Shown here piece after piece: positions 521 through 31,404 of a DNA stretch of 52,450 nucleotides. Both the position numbers and the translations under genes were made by a program. Source of the stretch: a virus (taxonomy: Duplodnaviria > Caudoviricetes); IMG/VR virus record IMGVR_UViG_3300027528_000003, positions 1-52,450 of that record; one strand, written 5' to 3'. The notes beneath the pieces are model-generated. The model worked only from the letters and a program-made list of their open reading frames with translations. It made no database searches and was not told where the DNA came from. Position 1 is the first letter of the stretch, and every line of letters begins with the position of its first letter.

Positions 521-2413
521 CTACGCTCCCAGCGCCCGGACCAGGAGCAGCGGCTCGTGGCGTTCCCCGGTGGCGAGCAGGCCGCGCACGTAGGAGTCCA
601 GCTTCAGGCGGGTCGCTGAGTCGACTCCGGCGGCGTCCAGCAGTTCCCAGGCGCCGTCCATCAGCCGGTCCAGGTCACTGACCGCCGGGCGGATCTGCGT
701 GTGCAGGTCCCAGGCGGCCAGCTGCATATGGGCAAGCCGGTTGCGGGTGGAGCGGTCCAGCAGCCGTTTCCCGGCGATCTCCAGCGCTCTTCGACAGGCC
801 ATGTCGGCGGCCATCACCGGCAGCCGTGCCCCGGCCCCGGCGGTGATGGCCGGGGCGCTGGCAGACGCTGGCGAGGCCGTGGGCGGGGCGCCGGCCGACG
901 GGGCGCCGGTGCGTGTCTGGGTGCTGGAGGCGGGCACCGGGGGGGTGGCGGTGGTCTTGTTGGTGCCGGGTACGGGTACCCCGCCGGGCAGGGTGCCGCG
1001 TTCGGTCACGGTGGTGCGTACGGCTTCGGGGACACCGAGGCCGGTGACGCCCAGCGCCGGGAGGACGATCTGCGCGCCGATGGGTGTCGCGGCCAGCTCC
1101 ATCAGGATCTTGAACTTGAGTTCTTCCTGGGTGGGGGCGTCGGCCTGGTCGAAGCCGCACTCGCGGCGCAGCGCATCCAGCCCGATCGCGTTCAGGCCGT
1201 ACAGCTGGATGGCTTCCACGGGCCGGTTGGGGCGCAGCGTGAGGACGTCGGTGTCCCCGGCGACCACGACGTCTGTGGTGTCGTAGCCCATCTGCTTCAT
1301 CAGCGGGTGCAGCCACATGCGGGTGATGGCGCCGGTGATGATGTCCAGCAGCGGGCGTACGTGGAGCTTGACGGCGCTCTCGTCCAGGGACCACGCGGAC
1401 CAGTGGTTGAGGTCGCCCAGGCCGAGCATGATCTCGGGGGGGATGTCGAGACTGATGGCGAGTTTCTTCAGGTGCAGGTTCTCGATGTCCACGGACTGGG
1501 AGTCGAAGGCCGTGCTGAGGTCGAGGTGTTTGAGCTTGTCGGCGGCGGCGTCGGGCATCCGGAGCACGATCGGCACGACGGCGGCGGCGCTGTCGCGGTT
1601 GCTGATCGGGGTGACCATCGCCTCCACGAGGTCGTTCATGAACGGGTCGTCGTGGACCTGCTGGGCGGCGTCCTGGGGGGATGCTGCGGCGATGGTGGCG
1701 GATTCGGGCACCGCGAGGATTCCGGCCCCGGCCAGTCGGGAGTCGACCGTGGCCAGGAAGTGCGCGTTCATCGCGCAGAGGACCCGCATCACCGGCAGGG
1801 CGGCTTTGCACTGGGAGTCGGCTTCCCAGGCGCGGCGCGGGTGCGGGCGCCACACGCGGGCGAACAGCGCCAGGTCGGGGTCGATGTCGGCGGTGGTGTA
1901 GTCGTCGCGGCGGACGCGGATCATGCCGCCGGGGCGGAACTCGACCTCTTCGCGGCTGAATGATCCCCAGCAGCGCTCGGGTTCGCGGCCGGGCATGTCG
2001 GGCTGCTCGTCCCAGGCGGCCACGAAGGACTCCCCGGGGACCGAGAGGTGGGTGGCGATGCGGTGCATGAACTGGATCTGTCCGGAGGGCCCGTTGGCGA
2101 AGCTGTCCAGCAGACCTTGCAGGCGCAGGTCGCTGACGGGGTTGGGGTTGCCGTCGCCGTCGCCGCGCGGGTCCATCTTGCCGACGTAGAGAGTGCAGCG
2201 GGATACCGCGTTGGCCAGCCAGCCGATGCCGTAGCGCAGCTCACCCAGGCGGTCGTAGTAGTTCCAGGCGTCCATCTGCCACGGCAGCCCGGCCCTCGGG
2301 GCGGTCTGCATGTTCTCGCGGGTGATCTGTACGGCAGCGGCGGTCAGTACCGGGGCCTGCTGGCCGGTCTTGGGCGACTTGTAGGTACGTGAGCGCCAGG
2401 TCCATGCAGGCAT
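521..2413 (-). CDS. Portal protein
   Basis: 630 aa; WQMDAWNYYDRLGELRY, WRPHPRR, SRLAGAGIL and NHWSAW motifs of actinophage portals; lies between TerL and MuF; GGAGG RBS. Confidence 0.9.
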   Translation of the reverse strand: MPAWTWRSRTYKSPKTGQQAPVLTAAAVQITRENMQTAPRAGLPWQMDAWNYYDRLGELRYGIGWLANAVSRCTLYVGKMDPRGDGDGNPNPVSDLRLQGLLDSFANGPSGQIQFMHRIATHLSVPGESFVAAWDEQPDMPGREPERCWGSFSREEVEFRPGGMIRVRRDDYTTADIDPDLALFARVWRPHPRRAWEADSQCKAALPVMRVLCAMNAHFLATVDSRLAGAGILAVPESATIAAASPQDAAQQVHDDPFMNDLVEAMVTPISNRDSAAAVVPIVLRMPDAAADKLKHLDLSTAFDSQSVDIENLHLKKLAISLDIPPEIMLGLGDLNHWSAWSLDESAVKLHVRPLLDIITGAITRMWLHPLMKQMGYDTTDVVVAGDTDVLTLRPNRPVEAIQLYGLNAIGLDALRRECGFDQADAPTQEELKFKILMELAATPIGAQIVLPALGVTGLGVPEAVRTTVTERGTLPGGVPVPGTNKTTATPPVPASSTQTRTGAPSAGAPPTASPASASAPAITAGAGARLPVMAADMACRRALEIAGKRLLDRSTRNRLAHMQLAAWDLHTQIRPAVSDLDRLMDGAWELLDAAGVDSATRLKLDSYVRGLLATGERHEPLLLVRALGA

Positions 2414-2426
2414 CCGGGCCTCCTGG

Positions 2427-2798
2427 TCAGATCTCGTCGCGGCGGGCGGGGGCCTCAAGCAGCGTGGCGGGCGGCAGGTCGTCCTGGTGGATGTAGAGGT
2501 GGCGCGGGGGCGGGGGCTGGTCCAGCCACGATGCGGTGATGCCGTAGAGCCAGGACACCGTCAGGGCCAGTGCCGGGACCTCGAACCACGGTGAGCGGCC
2601 GTGCCACCAGGCCAGGGGCGCCAGTGCGGCGGCGATCCACAGTCCGGCGCACCAGTAGCACTCGGCCAGGGTGCCGAGCCAGTCCGCGCGGCGCTGGCAC
2701 CAGTCGCGCAGGGGCCGGGTGATGGTGTCGTCGGTGAGCAGGCGCGTGAGGCGGAAGTGTGCGCCGAGGAGGAGTAGCAGTACGGGCAGGGAGATCAC
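2427..2798 (-). CDS. DUF1360-like membrane protein
   Basis: RLTRLLTDDTI...CYWC motif, hydrophobic segments, directly upstream of portal. Confidence 0.75.
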   Translation of the reverse strand: MISLPVLLLLLGAHFRLTRLLTDDTITRPLRDWCQRRADWLGTLAECYWCAGLWIAAALAPLAWWHGRSPWFEVPALALTVSWLYGITASWLDQPPPPRHLYIHQDDLPPATLLEAPARRDEI

Positions 2799-2872
2799 GC
2801 TTCGTACGGTACGCGCCGGTTGGGGGCGTATGGCAGTGGCTGGGCCGTTTGGACGGAAACCTGTATCCGGTC

Positions 2873-3820
2873 TGCGCGGATGGAAACGGGGCGGTTGTGA
2901 AACCCTGGCATACCAGCGCGACAGGGTGCGCGAGCACCGGTAAGCTCGCGCACCACCACCAGCCCCAGCCCCAGGAGTCGCGCAGATGTCCGCGCACCAC
3001 GACCAGCCCAGTACCTTGCGTGCGCGGACCGCCGCGCAGCCCGCCTTCTACATCAGCCGCGCAGTGGCGTGCGTGGTGCTGGTGGCCGCGCTGGTGATGT
3101 GCGCGCCCGGAGAGCACGATCTCGCGCAGCGCGCGGGCTACGGCGCGGACATCAGCTGGCTCGCGCCGGTGATCCTGTCGCTCTACGCGGCCACCGCCAT
3201 CGGCATCACCAGCAGCATGGAGGACGGCGCCCCGCGCAGGCGCTCCGCGCAGATCGCCTGCTTCGTATCCTCTGCGCTCGCGCTCTGCGCGCAGGTCGCC
3301 GTCCACCTGATCGAAGCCCACTACCTGCCCTCGCGCAGCTACTGGACCACCGCCGGGTTCTCGATGATGCCGGTCATCGCCGCCGCGCACATGATGCACC
3401 TGATCTCGCGCCCCCGGCAGACCGGTGCGCGGACCCTGCGCGGGATCACCTCGCGCACCACGGGCACCGCCGCCCGCGCACTGCGCGTGGTGCCCGCGCA
3501 GCCGCCGGTGATGCCCGCGCAGCCCGCGCCGCGCACCCCGGCGCCCGCCGCGCAGAGGCCCGCGCACCACGCCCCGCAGAGGGCTGTGGGAGTGCGCGAG
3601 GCTTCGCGCGAGACCGGGGTGAGCGAGTCCACGCTGCGCGGCTGGATCAAGTCCGGGTTCGTTATCAACCGCAACCCCGACGGCGAGCCGCCGCGCGTGT
3701 TCGTGCGCGATGTGCGCGACCACCAGGCCGCGCAGAAGAAGCTCACCCCGTGAACCCGCTGAGCGAGCCCGCGCAGCGGCTCACCTTCGGCGGCGGCACG
3801 TGCGCGGACCTGTTCGCGCA
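2873..3820. repeat. Dense dispersed CGCGCA/TGCGCG motif cluster
   Basis: About 33 copies by manual count in about 950 bp. Confidence 0.85.
2986..3753 (+). CDS. Multi-pass membrane protein with C-terminal HTH (DUF2637/Spd-like architecture)
   Basis: About 4 hydrophobic helices, Pro/Ala linker, VREASRETGVSESTLRGWIK HTH; AGGAG RBS. Confidence 0.7.
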   Translation: MSAHHDQPSTLRARTAAQPAFYISRAVACVVLVAALVMCAPGEHDLAQRAGYGADISWLAPVILSLYAATAIGITSSMEDGAPRRRSAQIACFVSSALALCAQVAVHLIEAHYLPSRSYWTTAGFSMMPVIAAAHMMHLISRPRQTGARTLRGITSRTTGTAARALRVVPAQPPVMPAQPAPRTPAPAAQRPAHHAPQRAVGVREASRETGVSESTLRGWIKSGFVINRNPDGEPPRVFVRDVRDHQAAQKKLTP

Positions 3821-3944
3821 GCTGTCGCTGTGGTGCCACGAGCACCCCGATGCGATGCCGGTCATGGTCCACGCCCAACTCCTGGACCCCCGGCACACCG
3901 AGCCCGGCGAAACCATGCAGCTCTCGGTTTGGGTCGAGCAGTGA
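3750..3944 (+). CDS. Hypothetical protein
   Basis: GTGA overlap with the upstream gene. Confidence 0.6.
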   Translation: MNPLSEPAQRLTFGGGTCADLFAQLSLWCHEHPDAMPVMVHAQLLDPRHTEPGETMQLSVWVEQ

Positions 3945-4213
3945 GCGGGCCGGGGTGGACGTGGGTGGATGACATCCTGGCGGGGCTGGTGTCGGTGCAG
4001 ATCGGATTGGCGGCGTGGTCCTGGCGCAAGGCGCTGCGGTTCACCCGAGCGCTGTACCAGGCCGGGCGCGGCCCCGACCCGGCCACGCAGATCGCCTGGA
4101 TCCTGGCCCAGCACGAACGCGCACTGGTGTGGACCAAGTGGGCCATGCTCTGCACCGCCGTCCCCACTATCGGCGTGGCCGTGTGGGGACTACTGGATGT
4201 ATCCCTGCACTAG
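3941..4213 (+). CDS. Small two-TM membrane protein
   Basis: GTGA overlap; two hydrophobic segments. Confidence 0.6.
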   Translation: MSGPGWTWVDDILAGLVSVQIGLAAWSWRKALRFTRALYQAGRGPDPATQIAWILAQHERALVWTKWAMLCTAVPTIGVAVWGLLDVSLH

Positions 4214-4223
4214 CGGCTGAACG

Positions 4224-4256
4224 CAGCCCCACCCGCGCCGAGCCCGGGTGGGGCTG
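4224..4256. terminator. Probable bidirectional terminator hairpin
   Basis: CAGCCCCACCCG / CGGGTGGGGCTG 12-bp inverted repeat between convergent genes. Confidence 0.7.
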
Positions 4257-4264
4257 TGCGGTGT

Positions 4265-4492
4265 TCAGGCTCCGGCCGCGCGCTCCAGATCCGCCACGGT
4301 GATGAGGTCGCCGGCATGAGCATCACGGACGAATTCGAGACTGAAGCGGCGCTCCCCGCCCAGTACCACCCCGTACGCCACCAGGCAGGCCGGGTGGTCG
4401 GCGTAGCGGCCCGGGAGCCAGGAGCCGTTCCAGGAGATCGTGAAGCCGTCCAGTCCCCCGGCCAGCGGATGGATCTGCAGTCCCTCGCTCAT
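4265..4492 (-). CDS. Hypothetical protein
   Basis: MSEGLQIH..., ATGA-coupled to the upstream gene, AAGGA RBS. Confidence 0.6.
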   Translation of the reverse strand: MSEGLQIHPLAGGLDGFTISWNGSWLPGRYADHPACLVAYGVVLGGERRFSLEFVRDAHAGDLITVADLERAAGA

Positions 4493-5076
4493 GTTGATCC
4501 TTTGCGTTCGGGCCGGTTGGACGGGCCGCCTTCGTCGTAGCGGGCTCTGGCCATCCGTCCCATGATCTCCTCGATCTGGGGCCATTCCACATAGTCCGCC
4601 AGGATGATGCGCTCGCGGTGGTCCCGTTCGGCGATGTCCGCCACCCGGGTCCAGCCCAGGGCCATGTCGCGGGCCTCCGCAGGGGTGACCTGGCCGCGCC
4701 TGGAGCCGCGCCGCAGCATCACGAAGGGCTTGCCGTGGATGGTGGCGCCGCCTTCCACGCCGATCACGGGGCGGCCGGTGGTGGCGTAGAGGTGGGCGCG
4801 GCGGGCACGGATGCGGTCCATCATCCGCCCGACCCTGCGCAGATCCCCATCGAAGGTCTCGGTCAGTTCCAGCACCAGCGATGCGTCGACCTCGGAACAG
4901 TTGGCTGCGGCGAACATGTCGCGGGCGGTCACGTGGGCGCGGTCCAGCGGGACGGCCGCGAAGAACGTGCCCCAGTGCACGAGCACCACCGGCAGTTCAG
5001 TGTCGGGATCCAGGCTTGCCTCAACCCAGAGGCTCGGGTCGTTCTCGTCGTGGATGAAGCGGTGCGTGTCGGTCAT
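4489..5076 (-). CDS. Hypothetical protein
   Basis: 195-aa ORF with protein-like composition. Confidence 0.7.
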   Translation of the reverse strand: MTDTHRFIHDENDPSLWVEASLDPDTELPVVLVHWGTFFAAVPLDRAHVTARDMFAAANCSEVDASLVLELTETFDGDLRRVGRMMDRIRARRAHLYATTGRPVIGVEGGATIHGKPFVMLRRGSRRGQVTPAEARDMALGWTRVADIAERDHRERIILADYVEWPQIEEIMGRMARARYDEGGPSNRPERKGST

Positions 5077-5194: not shown

Positions 5195-6718
5195 TCAGTA
5201 GGTGCGGCGCACGGGGGCGCCGCCACGCGGCTGTACAGAAGCGCGGGAGATGTCGGTGGCGGTGGTGACGGCTTTGCCCGCCCCCGGTACCCGCAGCAGC
5301 GCATACCCCAGGTACACCGAGGCGTCGATACGGCCGGGGCTGTCGGGGTCGTCGGGCTGCCAGGTGGCCCATTCGTTCTCGAGATCGGGGAGGTAGAACC
5401 CGAAGCGGATGCGGTCTTCGATGACCTGCTGGGCGATGGGGTCTGCGCGCAGCAGCTTGCCTACCTTGGCGCGGACCGGCTTGACCCGGGGACACAGCGT
5501 TCCCTCGGGGATCAGTTCCTCGTGCTGCATGGCGGTCCAGGCCGTGCGCACGGCCAGGGTGGCCTGGTCGCCGCCGAAGTTGGTCTCCACCACGATCAGT
5601 TGAGCGTCGGTGTCGTAGGCCAGCTGACAGGCCGCCCTGGACCACTGCGCGCTGGACATGTGGGCGGTGCGGTCGTGGGTCCAGTACAGGCGCTGGTCCT
5701 CGCCCAGGTAGCCGCCGATGATTCCGGCTTCGTCCCGGCCGCCGCCGGACGGGTCCACCGCCACCGCCACCCGCATCGGCGCCGGGGGCTCCTGGAAGTG
5801 GCGTGCGCGTTCCAGCTGCTCCCTTGAGAGCAGGGCGCCTTCGGCGGGTTTGGGGTCGCCCTGGTAGAGGGCGCCCCAGTCGCGGGCCTTGGTCTCGGCT
5901 TTCTTCTTGGACCAGTGCGCGGTGAGCAGACGGATGTTGCTGTCCGGGATGGCCGGGTGGGTCAGGGGGTCGCCGGGGGCGCGGTGCAGCGGATCGTCCG
6001 GGGCGGAGCTTATGGCCGGGAGGTGCAACACAATCCACTTGCCGCCCCGGGCCTTGACGCCCTCGTAGTGCATCAGGCGTCCGGCCAGGTCGTCTTCGTG
6101 CCAGCGGGTCATCAGCAGCACTACGGGGGTGCCCGGCCGCAGCCGGGACATGAACGTGGAGGACCACCAGTCCCAGACGTGTTCGCGCATCAGCCGCGAG
6201 TCGGCTTCCTTGCGGTCTTTGTGGGGGTCGTCGCAGATCGCCAGAGTCGCGGGGAAGCCGGTCAGTGACCCGCCCACGCCCACGGCGCGCATGCCTCCGC
6301 CTGCGGTGGTGGACCAGTCGTAGACGGAGGCTTCGCCGCGCTGTATCCGCAGCCCGAACTGGGCGCCGTGTTCGAACACGTGACGGCGCACTACGCGGGA
6401 GTGCTTCAGGGCCAGGGATGCGGCGTAGGACCCCAGCACGACCTTGGCGCGGGGTTCGCGGGCGAGCCACCAGAACGGCAGCGACTGCGAGACCAGCGTG
6501 GATTTGCCTACCTGCGGCGGGGTGGTGATCAGGAGGCGGTCATCTGGGCCCAGCTGTCCCAGGGTCTGTCCGATCAGGCGGGTGTGGGCGCGGATCTGGA
6601 AGTGGCGCGGGTCCAGGTACTTGGCCATCGTGGCGGGGTTCTTCAGGGCGGCCAGGCGGCGCATCTCCGCGCGCAGCTCCACGTCGGACATGTCGTGGTA
6701 GACAGCGAGGTCACTCAT
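5195..6718 (-). CDS. terL: Terminase large subunit
   Basis: Walker A PPQVGKST, Walker B AICDDP, MTRWHEDDLAG, nuclease motif VAVDPSGG. Confidence 0.95.
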   Translation of the reverse strand: MSDLAVYHDMSDVELRAEMRRLAALKNPATMAKYLDPRHFQIRAHTRLIGQTLGQLGPDDRLLITTPPQVGKSTLVSQSLPFWWLAREPRAKVVLGSYAASLALKHSRVVRRHVFEHGAQFGLRIQRGEASVYDWSTTAGGGMRAVGVGGSLTGFPATLAICDDPHKDRKEADSRLMREHVWDWWSSTFMSRLRPGTPVVLLMTRWHEDDLAGRLMHYEGVKARGGKWIVLHLPAISSAPDDPLHRAPGDPLTHPAIPDSNIRLLTAHWSKKKAETKARDWGALYQGDPKPAEGALLSREQLERARHFQEPPAPMRVAVAVDPSGGGRDEAGIIGGYLGEDQRLYWTHDRTAHMSSAQWSRAACQLAYDTDAQLIVVETNFGGDQATLAVRTAWTAMQHEELIPEGTLCPRVKPVRAKVGKLLRADPIAQQVIEDRIRFGFYLPDLENEWATWQPDDPDSPGRIDASVYLGYALLRVPGAGKAVTTATDISRASVQPRGGAPVRRTY

Positions 6719-7322
6719 CTTCTTCGCCCATCAGCTCCAGTACGTCCTCGGCGTCGATGCCGCCGGAGCCCAGGCGCCGCGCCAGCTCCATCGCAGCGGA
6801 TTCCATCTGCGCGCGCCGGGTGCCTTCATCGGCCGGCACTGAGGTGACCGTGATGGGGCCGCGTCCGGGGCCGGACAGCTGCACGCTGGTGTCGGGCTCG
6901 CCCAGGGCCACGCGGGCCAGCTTCGAGTACAGCTCGGCCATGCGCGTCAGCTCGGTCGCCGACAGGACGGAGGGGTCCAGTCCCTCCATCCCGGCGGAGA
7001 CTTTCCCGAGTACCTGCTTGGACAGGCGCAGGTGCTCCCTGACCATGGCGCGGGAGTTCTCGTCCAGGGCCGCGAGCCACTGGCGGTCCATGTGGGCGTC
7101 ATAGGCGCCGCAGCGTTCGTTCCAGCGCCAGGTGTAGGCGTACTGCTGGGCGGTGCGGTGGGTGATCTTCAGTCTTTCCGCCGCCCGCTTCAGCGTGCGC
7201 GTTCGCCCCAGGTCGCGGTACAGGGCGAACTGGTTCCAGCGGTTCAGGGATTCGCCGGGCTGGCGGTCCCAGGCGTCGCGGTCGTCGTCGCGCACGACGA
7301 TAGGCGCTTTGGGTTCAGCCAT
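6711..7322 (-). CDS. terS: Terminase small subunit
   Basis: WDRQPGES...FALYRDLG..RTL HTH and WRWNERCGAYD; overlaps terL. Confidence 0.75.
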   Translation of the reverse strand: MAEPKAPIVVRDDDRDAWDRQPGESLNRWNQFALYRDLGRTRTLKRAAERLKITHRTAQQYAYTWRWNERCGAYDAHMDRQWLAALDENSRAMVREHLRLSKQVLGKVSAGMEGLDPSVLSATELTRMAELYSKLARVALGEPDTSVQLSGPGRGPITVTSVPADEGTRRAQMESAAMELARRLGSGGIDAEDVLELMGEEDE

Positions 7323-8226
7323 CGGTGACCACCATGCCCTTCGCGGAGCGGGCGTCGGCCAGGGCCATCGCCTTCGCGGTCTCCTGGTCCAGGGTGCCGC
7401 ACAGCGTCAGCTTCTCTCTGAAGTACGCCACGGTGCTGATGCGCTCGGCCTTGCAGGTCTCGCACCAGCCGTTCCGGCGCTGTCCGCACGCGCACACGAT
7501 GGGGGTGTTGCCGTGCCATTCGTGGGCGTCGATCAGGGCCAGGTCGCCGTCCTGCATGTCCAGGGCGATACGCCAGCGCGGGAACACGAACACCCCGCCC
7601 GAATAGGTGCCGCGCCGGAAGCAGGTCAGGGTGGAGAACCCGGTGGCCAGGTCTCCGGCGTCCTGGTGGACGCCGGTGGGGTAGGTGTTGTTGACCGTGA
7701 CCGTGGAGAACGGCGTCCCGGGTACCGACCACTCGGGCGGGGTCTGCGAGACGGCTTTCATCTGGACGGCGAAGCGGTCCGGTACGTGGCGGGCGAACTC
7801 CAGCGAGACGTCGCGCAGCAGGGGAGCCAGGGCCTGCCACTGGGGCAGGTTCTGGCCGGTCCACGCGGTCAGGCGGCAGTACTTGTGATGTCCGGCGGCG
7901 TCGAATGCCCCGGCGATCGCGCTGGGGACGGGCAGGGCCCGGGTCTTGTTGCCGGAGCCTGACTTGACGCGTTCGGAGCCGGAGGCCGATCCGCGGTTCT
8001 CGGTGCGTGAGGATCGCAGCGCGTGGAGGATCTCGTAGGTGTCCGGGTTCTGGGTGTGCTGGCGCAGCACCCCGGGCAGGTACACCACCAGCGGCTGCCC
8101 GTTGGGCTTGAGGACGCGCGCCGGGCCGGTGAGCAGGGCGTTGTAGTCGGCGGGGCCCAGGATCTTGCCGATCTTGCCGTCGAGTTCGCTGTCGGGGATG
8201 CGTGTGCGCAGCCGCATCTCGATCAT
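7315..8226 (-). CDS. TET/JBP-like 2OG-Fe(II) dioxygenase (5-methylpyrimidine oxygenase)
   Basis: FSTVTVN..TGVHQDAGD (HxD), HEWHGN (distal His), ERISTVAYFRE (2OG-binding Arg). Confidence 0.85.
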   Translation of the reverse strand: MIEMRLRTRIPDSELDGKIGKILGPADYNALLTGPARVLKPNGQPLVVYLPGVLRQHTQNPDTYEILHALRSSRTENRGSASGSERVKSGSGNKTRALPVPSAIAGAFDAAGHHKYCRLTAWTGQNLPQWQALAPLLRDVSLEFARHVPDRFAVQMKAVSQTPPEWSVPGTPFSTVTVNNTYPTGVHQDAGDLATGFSTLTCFRRGTYSGGVFVFPRWRIALDMQDGDLALIDAHEWHGNTPIVCACGQRRNGWCETCKAERISTVAYFREKLTLCGTLDQETAKAMALADARSAKGMVVTDG

Positions 8227-8969
8227 CGGGTCACCGGCCGGGGTGCGGGGCGGAAGGCGAGTTCGCCGGGGCGGGTGGCGTGCGGGCGCAGGTACTGGGG
8301 CCAGCGCCGTACCAGTTCCTGGCACAGGGCCTGCTCGTCGGCGGGGGTGCGGTTGGCTACGGCGCCGCCCCGGTTGCTGTAGTGCGCGTAGGACGCGGTG
8401 ATCATGTCCAGGCGGGCTACTTTGCCGTGCAGGTGCAGGTGGGCACAGGTGTAGTCGTAGTCCTCTTTGAAGGGCAGCGTCTGGTCCCAGACGGGGATGG
8501 CGGTGTCGGTGGCGCACAGCGAGCCGATGATGAAGCCGTAATCCAGCTGTTTGCCCCGGGCGAAGTAGGCGTTGTCTGTCGGGGGGACGCCGACCAGGTG
8601 AGCGGTGCCGTCCAGGGCGTTGAGGATCTTCTCGCGGACGTGGGTCCAGGCGATGGGGAAGGGCTTCGCGCCGTCGGTTGCGGGGATGTGCCTGAAGCCT
8701 TTGCAGTCGTCGTCGGTCTGGATGCAGACCACGCCCTTGCTGGTGGCGTCGTAGAGGGCGGCGTTGCGTGCTGCGGCCAGGGCGTAGCCCGGTGGCGGGG
8801 GGTTCTTGACGGCCAGCACCCACTCGGCTCCGGCCTGCCGGTAGTCGTAGCGTTCATCGGCCGGCACGACCCACACGAGCGGGTCCGGGGCGAAGCGTGC
8901 GGTCATGGCGGGTACGTTGCCGGGGCGTCCGGCGCTGATCACGTACACCTGGTGGGCGCGGGTCACCAT
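8223..8969 (-). CDS. TET-associated GT-A fold glycosyltransferase
   Basis: YVISAGRP, ARN, QTDDD (DxD), KEDYDY, GG near the C-terminus; coupled to the dioxygenase. Confidence 0.8.
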   Translation of the reverse strand: MVTRAHQVYVISAGRPGNVPAMTARFAPDPLVWVVPADERYDYRQAGAEWVLAVKNPPPPGYALAAARNAALYDATSKGVVCIQTDDDCKGFRHIPATDGAKPFPIAWTHVREKILNALDGTAHLVGVPPTDNAYFARGKQLDYGFIIGSLCATDTAIPVWDQTLPFKEDYDYTCAHLHLHGKVARLDMITASYAHYSNRGGAVANRTPADEQALCQELVRRWPQYLRPHATRPGELAFRPAPRPVTR

Positions 8970-9733
8970 GTGATGGCCTCCACTCCGGCTTCGCGGAGCA
9001 TGTCCTGCCACTGGACCGGGGGGGCGTTGGTCTTGGCGCCGTCCAGGACGGCGACGGCGATGCGTACGGCTGCGTGGACCAGGGGTCCGGTGGGCTGTTC
9101 GCCGAGGTGTTCGCGCATTGCCTCCAGTCCGTTCATCAGGGCGGCTTTGTCGTCCACCGGCAGGATGACGACGACTTCGGCCAGGCCCTGGACGGCGAGG
9201 GAGCGTTCGCCTGCTACGCGGGCTTCGCGGGCTTCGCGGGCGTCGGGTTCCTCGGCCCACTGCGCGTCGGTGGGGCCGGGGTCGGTTTCGCGGCCCATGG
9301 CGTCCTCGTCGGGTTCCAGGCGCACCAGGAGGTCATCGAGCCAGTCGTCCTGGTAGCCGGTGCCGTCCAGGCCGATGTCGGTGTCGGCGAGTTCTTTGAG
9401 GACTTCGGCGAGGAGGTATTCGTTGAAGCCGCCGCCGACCTGGGCGGCCTGGTTGTCGACTACGAGGATGCGTTTGGCCTGGACGTCGGTGAGGTTGAGG
9501 CGTACGGCGGCGATCTGGTCCCAGCCGAGTTGCTGGGCGGCGTGCCAGGTGTGGTTGCCTGCGCAGATGTAGCCGGTGGAGTCCTGGATGACGATGGGCT
9601 TGAACTGGGAGTTGACTTCCAGGGATTTCGCGATGACGTCGATGTCGCCCTGGCGGGGGTTTCCGGGCCAGGGCTGCATGGTGCTGATCGGGGTCAGCTG
9701 ATCCTGTAGGGCGGTGTTGACGTTGTGGGGCAC
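8963..9733 (-). CDS. ParB/Srx N-terminal domain protein
   Basis: PWPGNPR, PIVI, AGNHTWHAAQQLG, ILVVDN. Confidence 0.85.
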   Translation of the reverse strand: MPHNVNTALQDQLTPISTMQPWPGNPRQGDIDVIAKSLEVNSQFKPIVIQDSTGYICAGNHTWHAAQQLGWDQIAAVRLNLTDVQAKRILVVDNQAAQVGGGFNEYLLAEVLKELADTDIGLDGTGYQDDWLDDLLVRLEPDEDAMGRETDPGPTDAQWAEEPDAREAREARVAGERSLAVQGLAEVVVILPVDDKAALMNGLEAMREHLGEQPTGPLVHAAVRIAVAVLDGAKTNAPPVQWQDMLREAGVEAITW

Positions 9734-18506: not shown

Positions 18507-18741
18507 GAGCCCGCTCCATCTGGTTCGCGAAGTCCAGCCCCGCCACCAGTCCCGTGATCGCGTCGTGCGCGGACAGCCGCCCGCCCTCGACCTCGTCCAG
18601 GACCCGCAGCACATCGCACACCGCCGCCATCCCCGGCACCGGCAGCCGCTCCGGGAACTCCACCGTCAGCTCCCCCGACTGGAACAGCACCATCGGCAGC
18701 CCCTCACCCAGCTGATACCGCGCATACACCGGCGTCGTCAT
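18496..18741 (-). CDS. Hypothetical protein
   Basis: ATGA overlap with the initiator gene. Confidence 0.6.
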   Translation of the reverse strand: MTTPVYARYQLGEGLPMVLFQSGELTVEFPERLPVPGMAAVCDVLRVLDEVEGGRLSAHDAITGLVAGLDFANQMERAHGR

Positions 18742-19577
18742 GCCGTTCGCTCCTTCATCGCCTCACGTACCCGGGCCGCGCCCCGTATGGCTACCTCGGG
18801 CTTTGGTGCGCGGGTCTCCATGGGAACGCTAGCCAGCTCCGGCAGATACGGGTGCGACGGCGCACCGGCCGGGATTCCCCCGGGCAGCACCCGCACCCCC
18901 AGCACGACGTCTTCGTACGGGGTCGCGCGCGGACCGGTACCTGTCTCTACTACATCAGCCATGGGTTGGTAGTGAGAGGTAAAAGAGGTAGGGGCGTCAC
19001 GTGACGGGGTGTGCGCTGTCACGTGACGGGGTGTGGTGGTGTCACGTGACGGGGTGTGGCTCTGCGGCGGGGTCTCGCAGGGGCTGTCACGTGACGGGGT
19101 GTGGCTGGCACTGTCACGTGACGGGGTGTGGGCTTGGGCGGCAGCCCGCTTGACGGCGTGGTCGGCGGCGGTGCGGGCGGCGCGGGCGGCCGGGGTGAGC
19201 CGCCGGTCCGTGCGCAGGACGGCGAGACCGGTCTCCCAGTCGGGCCAGGGATTGACCAGCAGGGTGTACACCGCCGGGCCGGGGTGCTCGCCGCCGCGTG
19301 CCTTCTTGGTCAGCTCCAGCAGGCCCATGGCGACGCCCATGCGCAGCACGCGGGAGACGGTGTCCTGGGAGCAGCGGGAGCGGTCGGCGAGCCATTCGAC
19401 GGACGGGTGCGCATTTTCGCCCGTCTCATAATCCGCACACTGTGCAAGCCACATCAAAACGGACGGAACGGATGAACTCACCGCTTTCCACTCGGGCGAT
19501 TCACGAGTGGCTTTTGGGCAATCTTTGATCGCTTTGCCCAGGTTGTTGATCCACGCAGATTGGACATTGTCCGCCAT
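18738..19577 (-). CDS. Replication initiator (N-terminal wHTH)
   Basis: AHPSVEWLADRSRCSQDTVSRVL; HTPSRD peptide repeats encoded by the iterons. Confidence 0.75.
   Translation of the reverse strand: MADNVQSAWINNLGKAIKDCPKATRESPEWKAVSSSVPSVLMWLAQCADYETGENAHPSVEWLADRSRCSQDTVSRVLRMGVAMGLLELTKKARGGEHPGPAVYTLLVNPWPDWETGLAVLRTDRRLTPAARAARTAADHAVKRAAAQAHTPSRDSASHTPSRDSPCETPPQSHTPSRDTTTPRHVTAHTPSRDAPTSFTSHYQPMADVVETGTGPRATPYEDVVLGVRVLPGGIPAGAPSHPYLPELASVPMETRAPKPEVAIRGAARVREAMKERTA
18996..19130. repeat. Five 18-bp iterons (putative origin)
   Basis: GTCACGTGACGGGGTGTG at 18996, 19018, 19041, 19086 and 19113; purine-rich tract at 18970-18995. Confidence 0.85.
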
Positions 19578-19656
19578 CGAGTATTCCCCTCCGTGATGCA
19601 CAGATCACACCGCGTCCGGTTGCGTGGCAGGCGCCCGGTCGGGGTAAACTGGCATC

Positions 19657-30792: not shown

Positions 30793-31404
30793 TCACAACC
30801 CGGGGCCTCCTGCCCCCCGGTCGTAGGAGGCCAGACCCGCCCGCCGCACCACCCGCCGCGCCGTAGCCTCCGAACACCCCAGAGCCGCCGCTATCCGCGA
30901 CGGAGCCCAGCTGTCGTCCCGGTACCAGGCCACCGCTAGCCGCTGCTGCTCCGCACTCAGCGCCGGGGGCCTGCCGCCCTTGCGCCCGGCGTCGGCGGCA
31001 TCCCGGACCCGCTTGCGGATGGTCCGCAGCTCGGCACCGGCCAGCACGAGCAGGATCTCGAACATGGTCTGGGCGGAGTGGTCGTCCATCTCCGGGCGCA
31101 GGATCAGACCCGCCTGCACGATGTGCAGCTCCGCCTTCTGCGCGCGGATCAGGTCCAGCAGGTCCAGCCCCTGGCGCACATCACGCGCGAACCGGTCCAC
31201 ATGCAGCACGCCCAGGCGGTCCTCAGGCAGGAGCTGGTGAACGAGACTCCTCAGCGCCGGCCGATCCACGTCGCCCCCCAGCCGCTCCACCACCGGCGGC
31301 GGATACCCGGCCTGGGCCAGGCCGTGACGCTGGCGGGTGAGGTCCTGGGCGTCCGTGGAGACGCGGGCATACGCATACAGGGCACCGGGCTGGGGTGTGG
31401 TCAT
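30793..31404 (-). CDS. Small serine recombinase (resolvase/invertase)
   Basis: YAYARVST, RPAL, VDRFAR, GRKGGRPP and a C-terminal HTH. Confidence 0.9.
   Translation of the reverse strand: MTTPQPGALYAYARVSTDAQDLTRQRHGLAQAGYPPPVVERLGGDVDRPALRSLVHQLLPEDRLGVLHVDRFARDVRQGLDLLDLIRAQKAELHIVQAGLILRPEMDDHSAQTMFEILLVLAGAELRTIRKRVRDAADAGRKGGRPPALSAEQQRLAVAWYRDDSWAPSRIAAALGCSEATARRVVRRAGLASYDRGAGGPGL

Follow-up and report, generated by a model that had tools for sequence, protein, structure and literature searches.

The movement of DNA between the compartments of the Streptomyces mycelium, whether plasmid or possibly phage DNA, is still poorly understood. Xis, BldC and RacA bind many repeated sites cooperatively, and RacA anchors DNA to the cell envelope; it is a soluble protein which reaches the membrane via a partner protein, and its 14-bp palindromic sites are spread over hundreds of kb. 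Here we describe a locus at positions 2873 to 3820 of the virus record IMGVR_UViG_3300027528_000003, the whole of which (52,450 bp, complete, with a 99-bp terminal overlap) is referred to as the window. A gene in this locus encodes a membrane protein with a C-terminal DNA-binding domain, and the gene and its flanks hold 34 copies of the word CGCGCA. We give a probability of roughly one half to the reading in which the protein's own DNA-binding domain would bind this array and hold the DNA at the membrane.

The closest described plasmid systems are the clt and Spd systems of Streptomyces. The clt loci are short direct repeats bound by TraB (PMC4447253, PMC3583192, PMC4170104); those of pSVH1, pJV1/pSN22 and pWTY27 are clusters of a short, element-specific word of 7-9 bp, the TraB recognition sequence (TRS), lying beside or 3' of their own traB, and a membrane-embedded protein reads them through its winged helix. 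What is known of the Spd proteins comes from genetics and for the most part does not extend to mechanism (PMC4447253): SpdB2 of pSVH1, a protein of 409 amino acids (aa) with an N-terminal coiled coil and non-specific DNA binding, is required for intramycelial spread, and homologs have been reported on actinophages (PMC4447253). SpdA2 of pIJ101 is small and soluble and binds palindromes in its own gene, the sps sites, which have a conserved 12-bp palindrome in one to three copies; loss of either protein or sites lowers segregational stability (PMC4170104).

The locus in the window resembles each of these in part. As in the TraB-clt systems, a short word is clustered, a winged helix on a membrane-embedded protein is the proposed reader, and relatives of the gene share the neighborhood of traA-traB; the window differs in that TraB was absent from it by tblastn, and in scale, its 34 copies being spread along 950 bp of coding DNA, on either strand, against six direct copies over ~110 bp in the clt of pSN22. 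In TraB elements the big array is distinct from the clt-like cluster. As with SpdA2, a DNA-binding protein of a mobile element would have its sites in its own coding sequence (judged in the window by covariation), whereas the word is a non-palindrome of 6-8 bp in 34 copies and the protein is membrane-anchored. Compared with SpdB2 by description, the window protein is likewise an integral membrane protein of about four helices (hydropathy, AlphaFold2); the membrane protein at the spd position of pSN22 is not detectably homologous to it. Its C-terminal head has the same MerR-like winged-helix fold as BldC, Xis and RacA of the RacA-ram system of Bacillus subtilis; unlike the window protein, BldC and Xis have no membrane anchor. 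The proteins of Actinomycetota that combine DUF2637 (PF10935) with a helix-turn-helix (HTH) also place a membrane domain before a C-terminal HTH, and no function is described for them; the window protein falls under the Pfam cut-off of that family. From ParABS the locus is set apart by its non-palindromic word and by the AAA_31 ParA that was not found, a ParB_N protein lying 5 kb away. Each ingredient has a precedent, in the short repeats of clt loci, in binders with sites in their own genes, in the Spd proteins of the membrane and in winged-helix proteins that anchor DNA to the envelope; for the combination in one gene of a membrane-anchored and apparently sequence-specific binder, a word-saturated gene with saturated flanks, and exchangeable heads with matching words, we found no description in the literature searched.

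The CGCGCA array

The array and the gene beneath it comprise the following features (Y, C or T; S, C or G; pLDDT, predicted local distance difference test).

2873..3820, both strands: word array, 34 Y-CGCGCA-S copies
2986..3753, plus strand: membrane-HTH gene, 255-aa product, 27 of the 34 words
3010..3408, plus strand: part coding for four membrane helices (residues 9-141; AlphaFold2, hydropathy)
3409..3582, plus strand: part coding for a disordered Pro/Ala/Gln-rich linker (residues 142-199; pLDDT 45-56)
3583..3744, plus strand: part coding for a C-terminal MerR/Xis/BldC-type winged HTH (residues 200-253; pLDDT 92-97)
2799..2985, no strand: divergent intergenic region with 4 words, presumed to hold the promoter(s)

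Within 2873-3820 there are 21 copies of CGCGCA and 13 of TGCGCG (21 on the plus and 13 on the minus strand), so that the count of about 33 in the initial annotation rises to 34. The remaining 51.5 kb of the window hold 92 copies, or ~1.7 per 950 bp, which makes the enrichment 19.5-fold, and no 500-bp bin elsewhere has more than three. When all 6-mers were scored in 900-bp frames, this was the strongest array of the window, with a Poisson score of 27.7 against 13.0 for the runner-up. The base before CGCGCA is C in 20 of 34 cases, T in 10, G in three and A in one; the base after it is G in 19 and C in 15, and never A or T. The extended word is Y-CGCGCA-S.

Each frame on each strand holds some of the 27 words inside the open reading frame (ORF), the counts being 11, 2, 2, 2, 4 and 6. 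Four more stand in the 187-bp divergent intergenic region upstream, at 2873, 2927, 2947 and 2979, and three beyond the stop, at 3770, 3801 and 3815, within the next, coupled ORF; the spread of words in both orientations and several frames, from upstream of the ATG to past the stop, is thus as first annotated. Synonymous-codon permutation of the ORF yields 9.19 +/- 2.35 words with a maximum of 18 in 5000 runs, resampling of its codons from the usage of the window yields 6.00 +/- 2.15 (maximum 15 of 5000), and shuffling of codon order yields 3.11 +/- 1.72 (maximum 11 of 5000), against the 27 observed, and the codon-shuffled control that the initial annotation had proposed therefore leaves the enrichment standing. 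Since there are 27 words where permutation gives 9.2, in three frames and on both strands, with seven further copies outside the ORF, selection acts on the DNA; the enrichment is a property of the DNA and not of the protein sequence.

The density of words peaks in the part coding for the linker (6.1 per 100 bp, residues 141-195), where the tripeptides PAQ, AAQ and PAH spell the word, and is lowest in the part coding for the helices (2.5 per 100 bp, residues 23-140; 3052-3405). Spacing is irregular, with a median of ~21 bp; inter-site distances follow a period of ~10.75 bp (|R| = 0.31), a value reached by three of 500 jittered controls, and 20 of 33 neighbor spacings lie within 2 bp of a multiple of 10.75, where 15.3 are expected. 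The same period is found in locus L099, the other strong MerR-type array, where 27 of 500 jittered controls reach it.

The membrane-anchored protein

AlphaFold2 places the helices of the window protein at residues 9-49, 59-77, 85-110 and 119-141, and hydropathy agrees on a four-helix integral membrane protein; together with Foldseek, these predictions display the layout proposed earlier of about four transmembrane helices, a linker and a C-terminal HTH. By the positive-inside rule both termini would be cytoplasmic, and the DNA-binding head would therefore face the DNA. No solved structure resembling the membrane part was found by Foldseek. In the Atlas structure search, residues 20-150 lie near DUF2637 clusters (template modeling (TM) score 0.73), some of which are fused to HTH_23 or HTH_3, and the Pfam DUF2637 score of the membrane domain is 12.7 bits, under the cut-off of 22.8; the domain may at best be a distant DUF2637 relative.

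For the head, Foldseek returned Xis of mycobacteriophage Pukovnik (4j2n, TM 0.67-0.69), Streptomyces BldC (6amk, TM 0.72) and the RacA-DNA complex (5i44), each at probability 1.00, and further matches of the protein were to MerR N-domains and the DNA-binding domains of small terminases (7lw0, 7lwr, 6hn7); overall the TM on target was 0.58-0.72 with all E-values at least 0.1 (0.1-0.3), which are weak because the query was the whole protein. Searched against the PDB, the family profile matches BldC chains (6amk) at E = 3.9e-4. The Pfam MerR score of the window protein, 19.4 bits, is under the curated cut-off of 28.2, and among 19 aligned relatives HTH_17 matches seven and MerR six (E <= 0.01). 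The putative recognition helix is ESTLRGWIKS (214-223). No replication domain was found in the protein by domain searches.

An exhaustive HMMER search recovered 119 representative homologs (E <= 0.001), all of which have the membrane domain. P41, E43, G51, Y67, Q103, H107, H135 and H138 are invariant in a 19-sequence alignment and are all kept in the window protein; no part of the family is better conserved than the membrane anchor. Where sources label the homologs, it is as hypothetical, HTH-domain or MerR-family proteins. Cultured examples are found in the Streptomyces phages Attoomi (gp48), Ponzi (gp4) and mu1/6 (gp30), and relatives at large occur in phages, prophages, lysogeny modules and traA-traB conjugative elements of Streptomyces/Kitasatospora. 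The phage itself stands alone: searches of sequence collections by DNA, by the membrane-HTH protein and by the portal protein gave no close relative, and its nearest terminase relatives are those of Gordonia phages at ~45% identity.

Different words track different heads

We compared 104 loci encoding relatives, 55 from Streptomyces, Kitasatospora or Embleya genomes and 49 from IMG/VR, and sorted the proteins into head classes by their C-terminal 110 residues: MerR-type (STVRTW, STVR[SN]W, STVRGW and others), 'KPNT..RAR', three DeoR/HTH_11-like classes and 'IRGTLR'. Many of these loci have a dense array of their own at the corresponding place, made of another word. Counts near the gene refer to the ORF +/- 700 bp.

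L098: CGGACA, 43 copies near the gene and 51 in the locus (10.6 kb)
L092: GGGACA, 34 near the gene and 38 in the locus (7.2 kb)
L100: GGGACA, 28 near the gene and 39 in the locus (10.4 kb)
L091: CCGGACA, 28 near the gene and 38 in the locus (10.4 kb)
L087: GAGACG, 13 near the gene and 13 in the locus (4.2 kb)

L099 has 29 copies of GAGACG. If the gene region is taken to start 600 bp before the match and to end 300 bp after the ORF, it holds 20 of them and leaves nine outside; if the ORF is extended by 1,200 bp upstream and 700 bp downstream, 26 are covered. Synonymous permutation again leaves an excess inside the ORF: 20 CGGACA against 4.5 +/- 1.7 in L098, 16 GGGACA against 3.8 in L100, 22 GGGACA against 5.7 in L092, 25 GGACAG against 7.8 in L077, and 10 GAGACG against 3.8 in L087. 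The relatives share a layout in which words extend over 600 bp upstream, pass over the part coding for the conserved helices and crowd the part coding for linker and head, and sit in several frames and on both strands.

When loci were pooled by head class, with those duplicating another's C-terminal 150 residues dropped, the density of words at the gene relative to outside was as follows.

STVRTW (4 loci): GAGACG, 9.5-fold
STVR[SN]W (13 loci): AGGACG / GGACGC, 3.0-fold
STLRGW, the window (1 locus): CGCGCA, 9.3-fold
KPNT..RAR (5 loci): GGGACA / CGGACA, 10.3- and 7.7-fold
CSxRxGYRY (9 loci): CTGGCA / CTGCCA, about 7-fold
VSxRTxRRxL (15 loci): CGGCCA, 2.7-fold

The table of words by classes is nearly diagonal, most off-diagonal cells being 0-2.5-fold; exceptions are GGACG-type words among the MerR-type classes (GGGACG 4.4-fold in STVRTW), CGGACA in VSxRTxRRxL (3.4-fold) and the STVRGW row, a single locus with small counts. 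Pooled p-values are 1e-17 to 1e-52 for gene regions and 1e-2 to 1e-14 for controls of the same size displaced by 2.6-4 kb, among which the sole strong region is a real clt-like cluster behind traB; since shared ancestry inflates these values, effect sizes and controls are the fairer guide. Membrane domains are no guide to the word: that of L100 is 71% identical to L069 and 73% to L098, while L069, L087 and L099 combine a MerR-type head with GAGACG, and L098 and L100 another head type with sGGACA. The word tracks the class of the C-terminal DNA-binding domain rather than the membrane domain or TraB, and the domain is exchangeable within the family. The initial annotation had proposed looking for homologs whose repeats vary with the recognition helix, and such repeats exist, each following the DNA-binding domain of its protein and the recognition helix in it.

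When IMG/VR was scanned for groups of three CCGCGCA words at close spacing, at least 120 loci emerged, nearly all of them one-strand tandem arrays; among the matches listed there was no second family member of the CGCGCA type, and only L123 had a weak family match (E = 4.8e-5), without a dense array. The window and L098 proteins had no match in the plasmid collection.

A different cluster was observed in prophages with the GRDRRTGSRY head, which lack an array at the gene: in L094 (6900-7900), L041 (7200-8500) and about ten similar prophages, ~12 copies of GGGACA are clustered ~2.5 kb downstream of the family gene, between lysin and tail-fiber genes.

TraB elements and the reader of the array

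Six relatives (L077, L091, L092, L098, L099 and L100) are encoded directly upstream of traA-traB, which bears out the link to Streptomyces plasmid transfer drawn in the initial annotation and makes TraB the obvious candidate reader. The TraB proteins of L098, L100 and L091 match NCBIfam plasmid_TraB over the full model length at E 1e-95 to 1e-116, under the equivalog cut-off, and by tblastn TraB matches annotated traB of Streptomyces plasmids, including pWTY27. L098 and L100 each have, directly behind traB, a compact cluster of TGTCAG(A) in ~120 bp of non-coding DNA, with 10 and 8 copies respectively:

L098, 8495-8611, both strands: TGTCAG(A) cluster
L100, 8275-8393, both strands: TGTCAG(A) cluster

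This cluster, whose word resembles the published clt repeat TGACACC of pWTY27 (PMC3583192), is probably the clt of these two elements. Their TraB proteins end in almost the same winged helix, whereas the family heads are unlike, as are the big arrays (CGGACA in L098, GGGACA in L100). This double dissociation speaks against TraB and for the family head as the reader, as does the domain swap by which L100 and L069 have like membrane domains and differ in both heads and words.

Plasmid pSN22 (L111, NC_001425.2) repeats this separation. Behind its traB, at 4704-4810 (~110 bp), stand six direct copies of CCGCACA, the published pJV1-type clt repeat CCGCACA[C/G][C/G] (PMC3583192). Apart from these, at 5796-6346, 16 copies of CGTGAG(C) extend over two successive genes, the first for a 251-aa membrane protein and the second for a 98-aa HTH_23 protein; the word is in a different frame in each, and reads as Arg-Glu repeats with the rare CGT codon in the first and as Val-Ser in the second. 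We found no published description of this array. The 251-aa protein has no detectable homology to the family (hhalign probability 0.3%), and the hidden Markov model (HMM) of the family N-domain has no match in pSN22, pS1D4-14.2 or phiC31; the arrangement therefore recurs by analogy.

Plasmid pS1D4-14.2 (L110, NZ_CP041606.1) has 16 CGAAAG words at 2243-3311 (19 in 9.9 kb), covering the 3' part of a gene for a 340-aa membrane protein and a separate gene for a 136-aa protein, just upstream of traA-traB. The C-terminus of the 136-aa protein matches the 'KPNT..RAR'-type head, so that the whole looks like a split module.

With tblastn, two TraB and one TraA queries gave nothing below E = 0.3 in the window, which excludes a translocase encoded in cis as the reader there. 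Because of the double dissociation, the split in pSN22, the domain swap and the lack of TraB in the window, the simplest reader would be the winged helix encoded in the array, and we infer that the gene's own winged helix reads the CGCGCA words.

An unlikely alternative is that the array mimics a clt and is read by the TraB of a co-resident conjugative element or by a host translocase of the FtsK/SpoIIIE type, the membrane protein being a Spd-like helper, so that a foreign motor would pump the phage genome between hyphae or compartments. Y-CGCGCA-S is one base from the pJV1 clt repeat (PMC3583192), and pSN22 has its six direct CCGCACA directly behind traB; a Streptomyces strain can hold several such elements (PMC9513070), six family members sit directly upstream of traA-traB, and SpdB2 homologs on actinophages have been suggested to help phage DNA spread (Thoma et al., PMC4447253). 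The window itself, however, has no TraB, and where L098 and L100 share a separate small clt-like cluster their big arrays differ and follow the DNA-binding domain of the family protein, just as the CCGCACA clt of pSN22 is separate from its CGTGAGC array. The clt and clt-like clusters found here or given in the published accounts cited, moreover, have 4-10 copies, not 34 over 950 bp of coding DNA, and those mapped here fit within ~120 bp of non-coding DNA.

Genomic setting

The gene has an AGGAG ribosome-binding site 10 nt ahead of its ATG and a GC content at third codon positions (GC3) of 0.94. It is the first of a three-ORF plus-strand cassette (2986-4213), and the GTG of the second ORF overlaps its stop (GTGA), suggesting translational coupling; the sufficiency of a single gene, proposed earlier as a one-gene device, is not supported. 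The cassette runs opposite to the flanking minus-strand genes for the portal, the DUF1360 protein, terL and terS.

521..2458, minus strand: portal
2427..2798, minus strand: DUF1360 gene, upstream divergent neighbor of the membrane-HTH gene
3753..3944, plus strand: downstream 63-aa ORF with the last 3 words, no family match
5195..6718, minus strand: terL
6711..7322, minus strand: terS, 3 kb from the array

A promoter/terminator scan of 2400-4700 yielded nothing of use; it showed no sigma-70-type consensus, the lack of which says little for actinobacteria.

In phiC31 (L112), gp32 (640-1170, minus strand), annotated as transcribed in lysogens, faces backwards between the terminase subunits; the N-domain HMM leaves it outside the family, and none of the short-word arrays of phiC31 is strong, the best scoring 5.7.

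Proposed function and alternatives

In the reading that we prefer, the ~34 Y-CGCGCA-S sites would be a cis-acting binding array laid over and around the gene of its reader protein, which would be a four-helix membrane protein holding its cytoplasmic winged helix on a flexible linker of ~55 residues. Many anchored copies would bind phased sites along one face of the DNA and fasten this part of the phage genome to the cytoplasmic membrane; since four of the sites lie in the divergent promoter region, the protein would probably also regulate its own gene, as a side effect. Held in this way at the membrane or septum, the DNA of the element could pass from one hyphal compartment to the next or be inherited, the most likely use given that the module is shared with Streptomyces-type conjugative elements, where it stands directly upstream of traA-traB. 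Membrane tethering of the phage DNA is what we infer from the array-coating fold of the head, the anchor as the most conserved part, the phasing in the window (and perhaps in L099) and the neighborhood of transfer motors, which together favor a DNA-to-membrane fastener. SpdA2-sps of pIJ101, with its sites in the binder's gene and its effect on stability, offers a precedent on a smaller scale (PMC4170104). For the phage, the pay-off could lie in hyphal spread, in being inherited as an extrachromosomal prophage, in replicating or packaging its DNA at the membrane, or in keeping rivals out.

Several observations weigh against this reading. About half of the DNA-binding-domain classes have no array at the gene, and none that is strong was found in GRDRRTGSRY (25 loci), IRGTLR (7), TTLYRR (4) or xTVRGxAN (4), nor at the family gene of mu1/6 (score 3.2). 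Of 87 loci that are 9 kb or longer, 32 have their best array overlapping the neighborhood of the gene, where position alone predicts 22.9, and at a score of at least 12 it is at the gene in 4 of 13 against 3.4 expected; the excess over the positional expectation is modest, and the elements therefore hold other short-word arrays too. Attoomi (L004/L096) has a strong array (GGCCAC, 26 copies in 900 bp) not over the homolog gp48 but over gp46, which encodes a hypothetical 340-aa protein next but one to gp48 and on the opposite strand, in an integrase-proximal module; L099 carries a CGGGAC array upstream of its GAGACG array, and would therefore have a second reader. The covariation of word and domain could partly reflect shared descent, since the classes are clades and independent lineages are few, and no close phage relative was found with which to compare the window's own array for conservation. 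The phasing is absent from all five arrays of the other domain type (L098, L091, L100, L092 and L077) and from those of pSN22 and L110; given that nine arrays were tested, the phasing in the window (0.006) is suggestive only. Finally, the single base between the window word and the pJV1/pSN22 clt repeat (PMC3583192) leaves room for a translocase as the reader.

Improbable as well is a purely regulatory role, in which the sites would be operators for autoregulation or a transcriptional roadblock, silencing or insulating a backwards-facing cassette in the late operon, with no positioning of DNA. Proteins of the MerR/Xis/BldC type act in regulation or in DNA architecture, the sites are divided between the divergent promoter region (four) and transcribed DNA (the rest), and the cassette is oriented against terL and portal. 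Yet 34 sites across a coding sequence far exceed the needs of an operator, the conserved membrane anchor would be left unexplained, and the same module adjoins the DNA-transfer genes of conjugative elements.

That the array is a phage packaging (pac) region bound by the small terminase is very doubtful. Its place between terL and portal, 3 kb from terS, would suit this, as would the winged-helix fold shared by small-terminase DNA-binding domains (7lw0, 7lwr, 6hn7) and the position of the mu1/6 homolog just upstream of the terminase genes; against it, like arrays stand at family genes in conjugative elements and lysogeny modules, far from terminases, the mu1/6 gene itself has none, and the word follows the DNA-binding domain of the family. 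As for a replication origin with iterons inside an initiator gene, of the kind known from lambda O, or a by-product of the Pro-Ala-Gln linker and local composition, we regard both as highly improbable, since the protein has no replication domain that we could find and the window has a better origin candidate at 18996-19125 (five regular direct repeats in an HTH_36 gene, at a GC dip), and since, although the densest part of the array is the linker with its PAQ/AAQ/PAH spelling, the sites use every frame and either strand, extend into non-coding DNA, and outnumber those of any of 5000 synonymous permutations.

Three other explanations of the word were considered and rejected. Z-DNA formation by the alternating CGCGCA does not agree with the preferred flanks (Y before, S after), which do not continue the alternation, or with the non-alternating words of the relatives. 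A Chi-like or restriction-site role does not agree with the rest of the window, where the word is not avoided (92 copies against ~81 expected from composition), or with the tracking of the DNA-binding domain. For cytosine methylation, the window has a TET/JBP oxygenase, but no PF00145 methyltransferase was found in it, and modification would not account for a local array.

If the preferred reading is true, a sequence-specific binder that is anchored in the membrane and provided with an array of its own would give a testable handle on intramycelial DNA movement. One stretch of DNA would be under an unusual double selection, encoding a membrane and DNA-binding protein while carrying dozens of its sites. 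We propose only tentatively a further possibility, that fasteners of this self-contained kind, tying DNA to the membrane, are widespread among the phages, prophages and conjugative elements of actinobacteria, built of a conserved four-helix anchor, a flexible linker and an exchangeable head, with the word re-coded whenever the head is swapped. Many anchored heads would then grip one face of the DNA and place the element at the membrane or septum, and viral DNA could spread through the mycelium, or be inherited in it, with no need of virions; protein and array, co-encoded in the same bases, would make a new class of cis/trans module. The pairs of domain and word (CGCGCA, GAGACG, GGACG, sGGACA and TGCCAG) offer material for specificity swaps and for orthogonal DNA-tethering tools in actinomycetes, and cultured systems are at hand in the Streptomyces phages Attoomi, Ponzi and mu1/6 and in plasmid pSN22 with its analogous array.

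Other features of the record

The label of phage-plasmid given in the initial annotation is not supported: searches of the record for ParA (AAA_31), a tyrosine integrase and a large serine recombinase were negative. Apart from phage genes and an HTH_36 gene whose repeats resemble iterons, what it has is only a ParB_N protein and a small resolvase.

8963-9733, minus strand: ParB_N-domain protein
30793-31404, minus strand: 203-aa resolvase-type serine recombinase with an HTH
7315-8202, minus strand: TET/JBP-type 2OG-Fe oxygenase (Pfam E = 2.3e-15), beside the small terminase

The oxygenase and its neighbor, an ORF at 8223-9260 (minus strand) for which no family match was found, may form a DNA hypermodification module whose methylase is missing or unrecognized, PF00145 (cytosine-5 methyltransferase) being the family sought in the window.

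At 18996-19125, within the ORF 18738..19601 (minus strand), five direct repeats of approximately tGTCACGTGACGGGGTGTG lie inside the 287-aa HTH_36 gene; they read five times as HTPSRD and adjoin the GC dip at 19-20 kb. Their core, GTCACGTGAC, is the sps palindrome which SpdA2 of pIJ101 binds inside its own gene (PMC4170104). These repeats are probably an iteron-type origin or a stability element like SpdA-sps, and would be a second case in this genome of sites lying in the gene of their binder.

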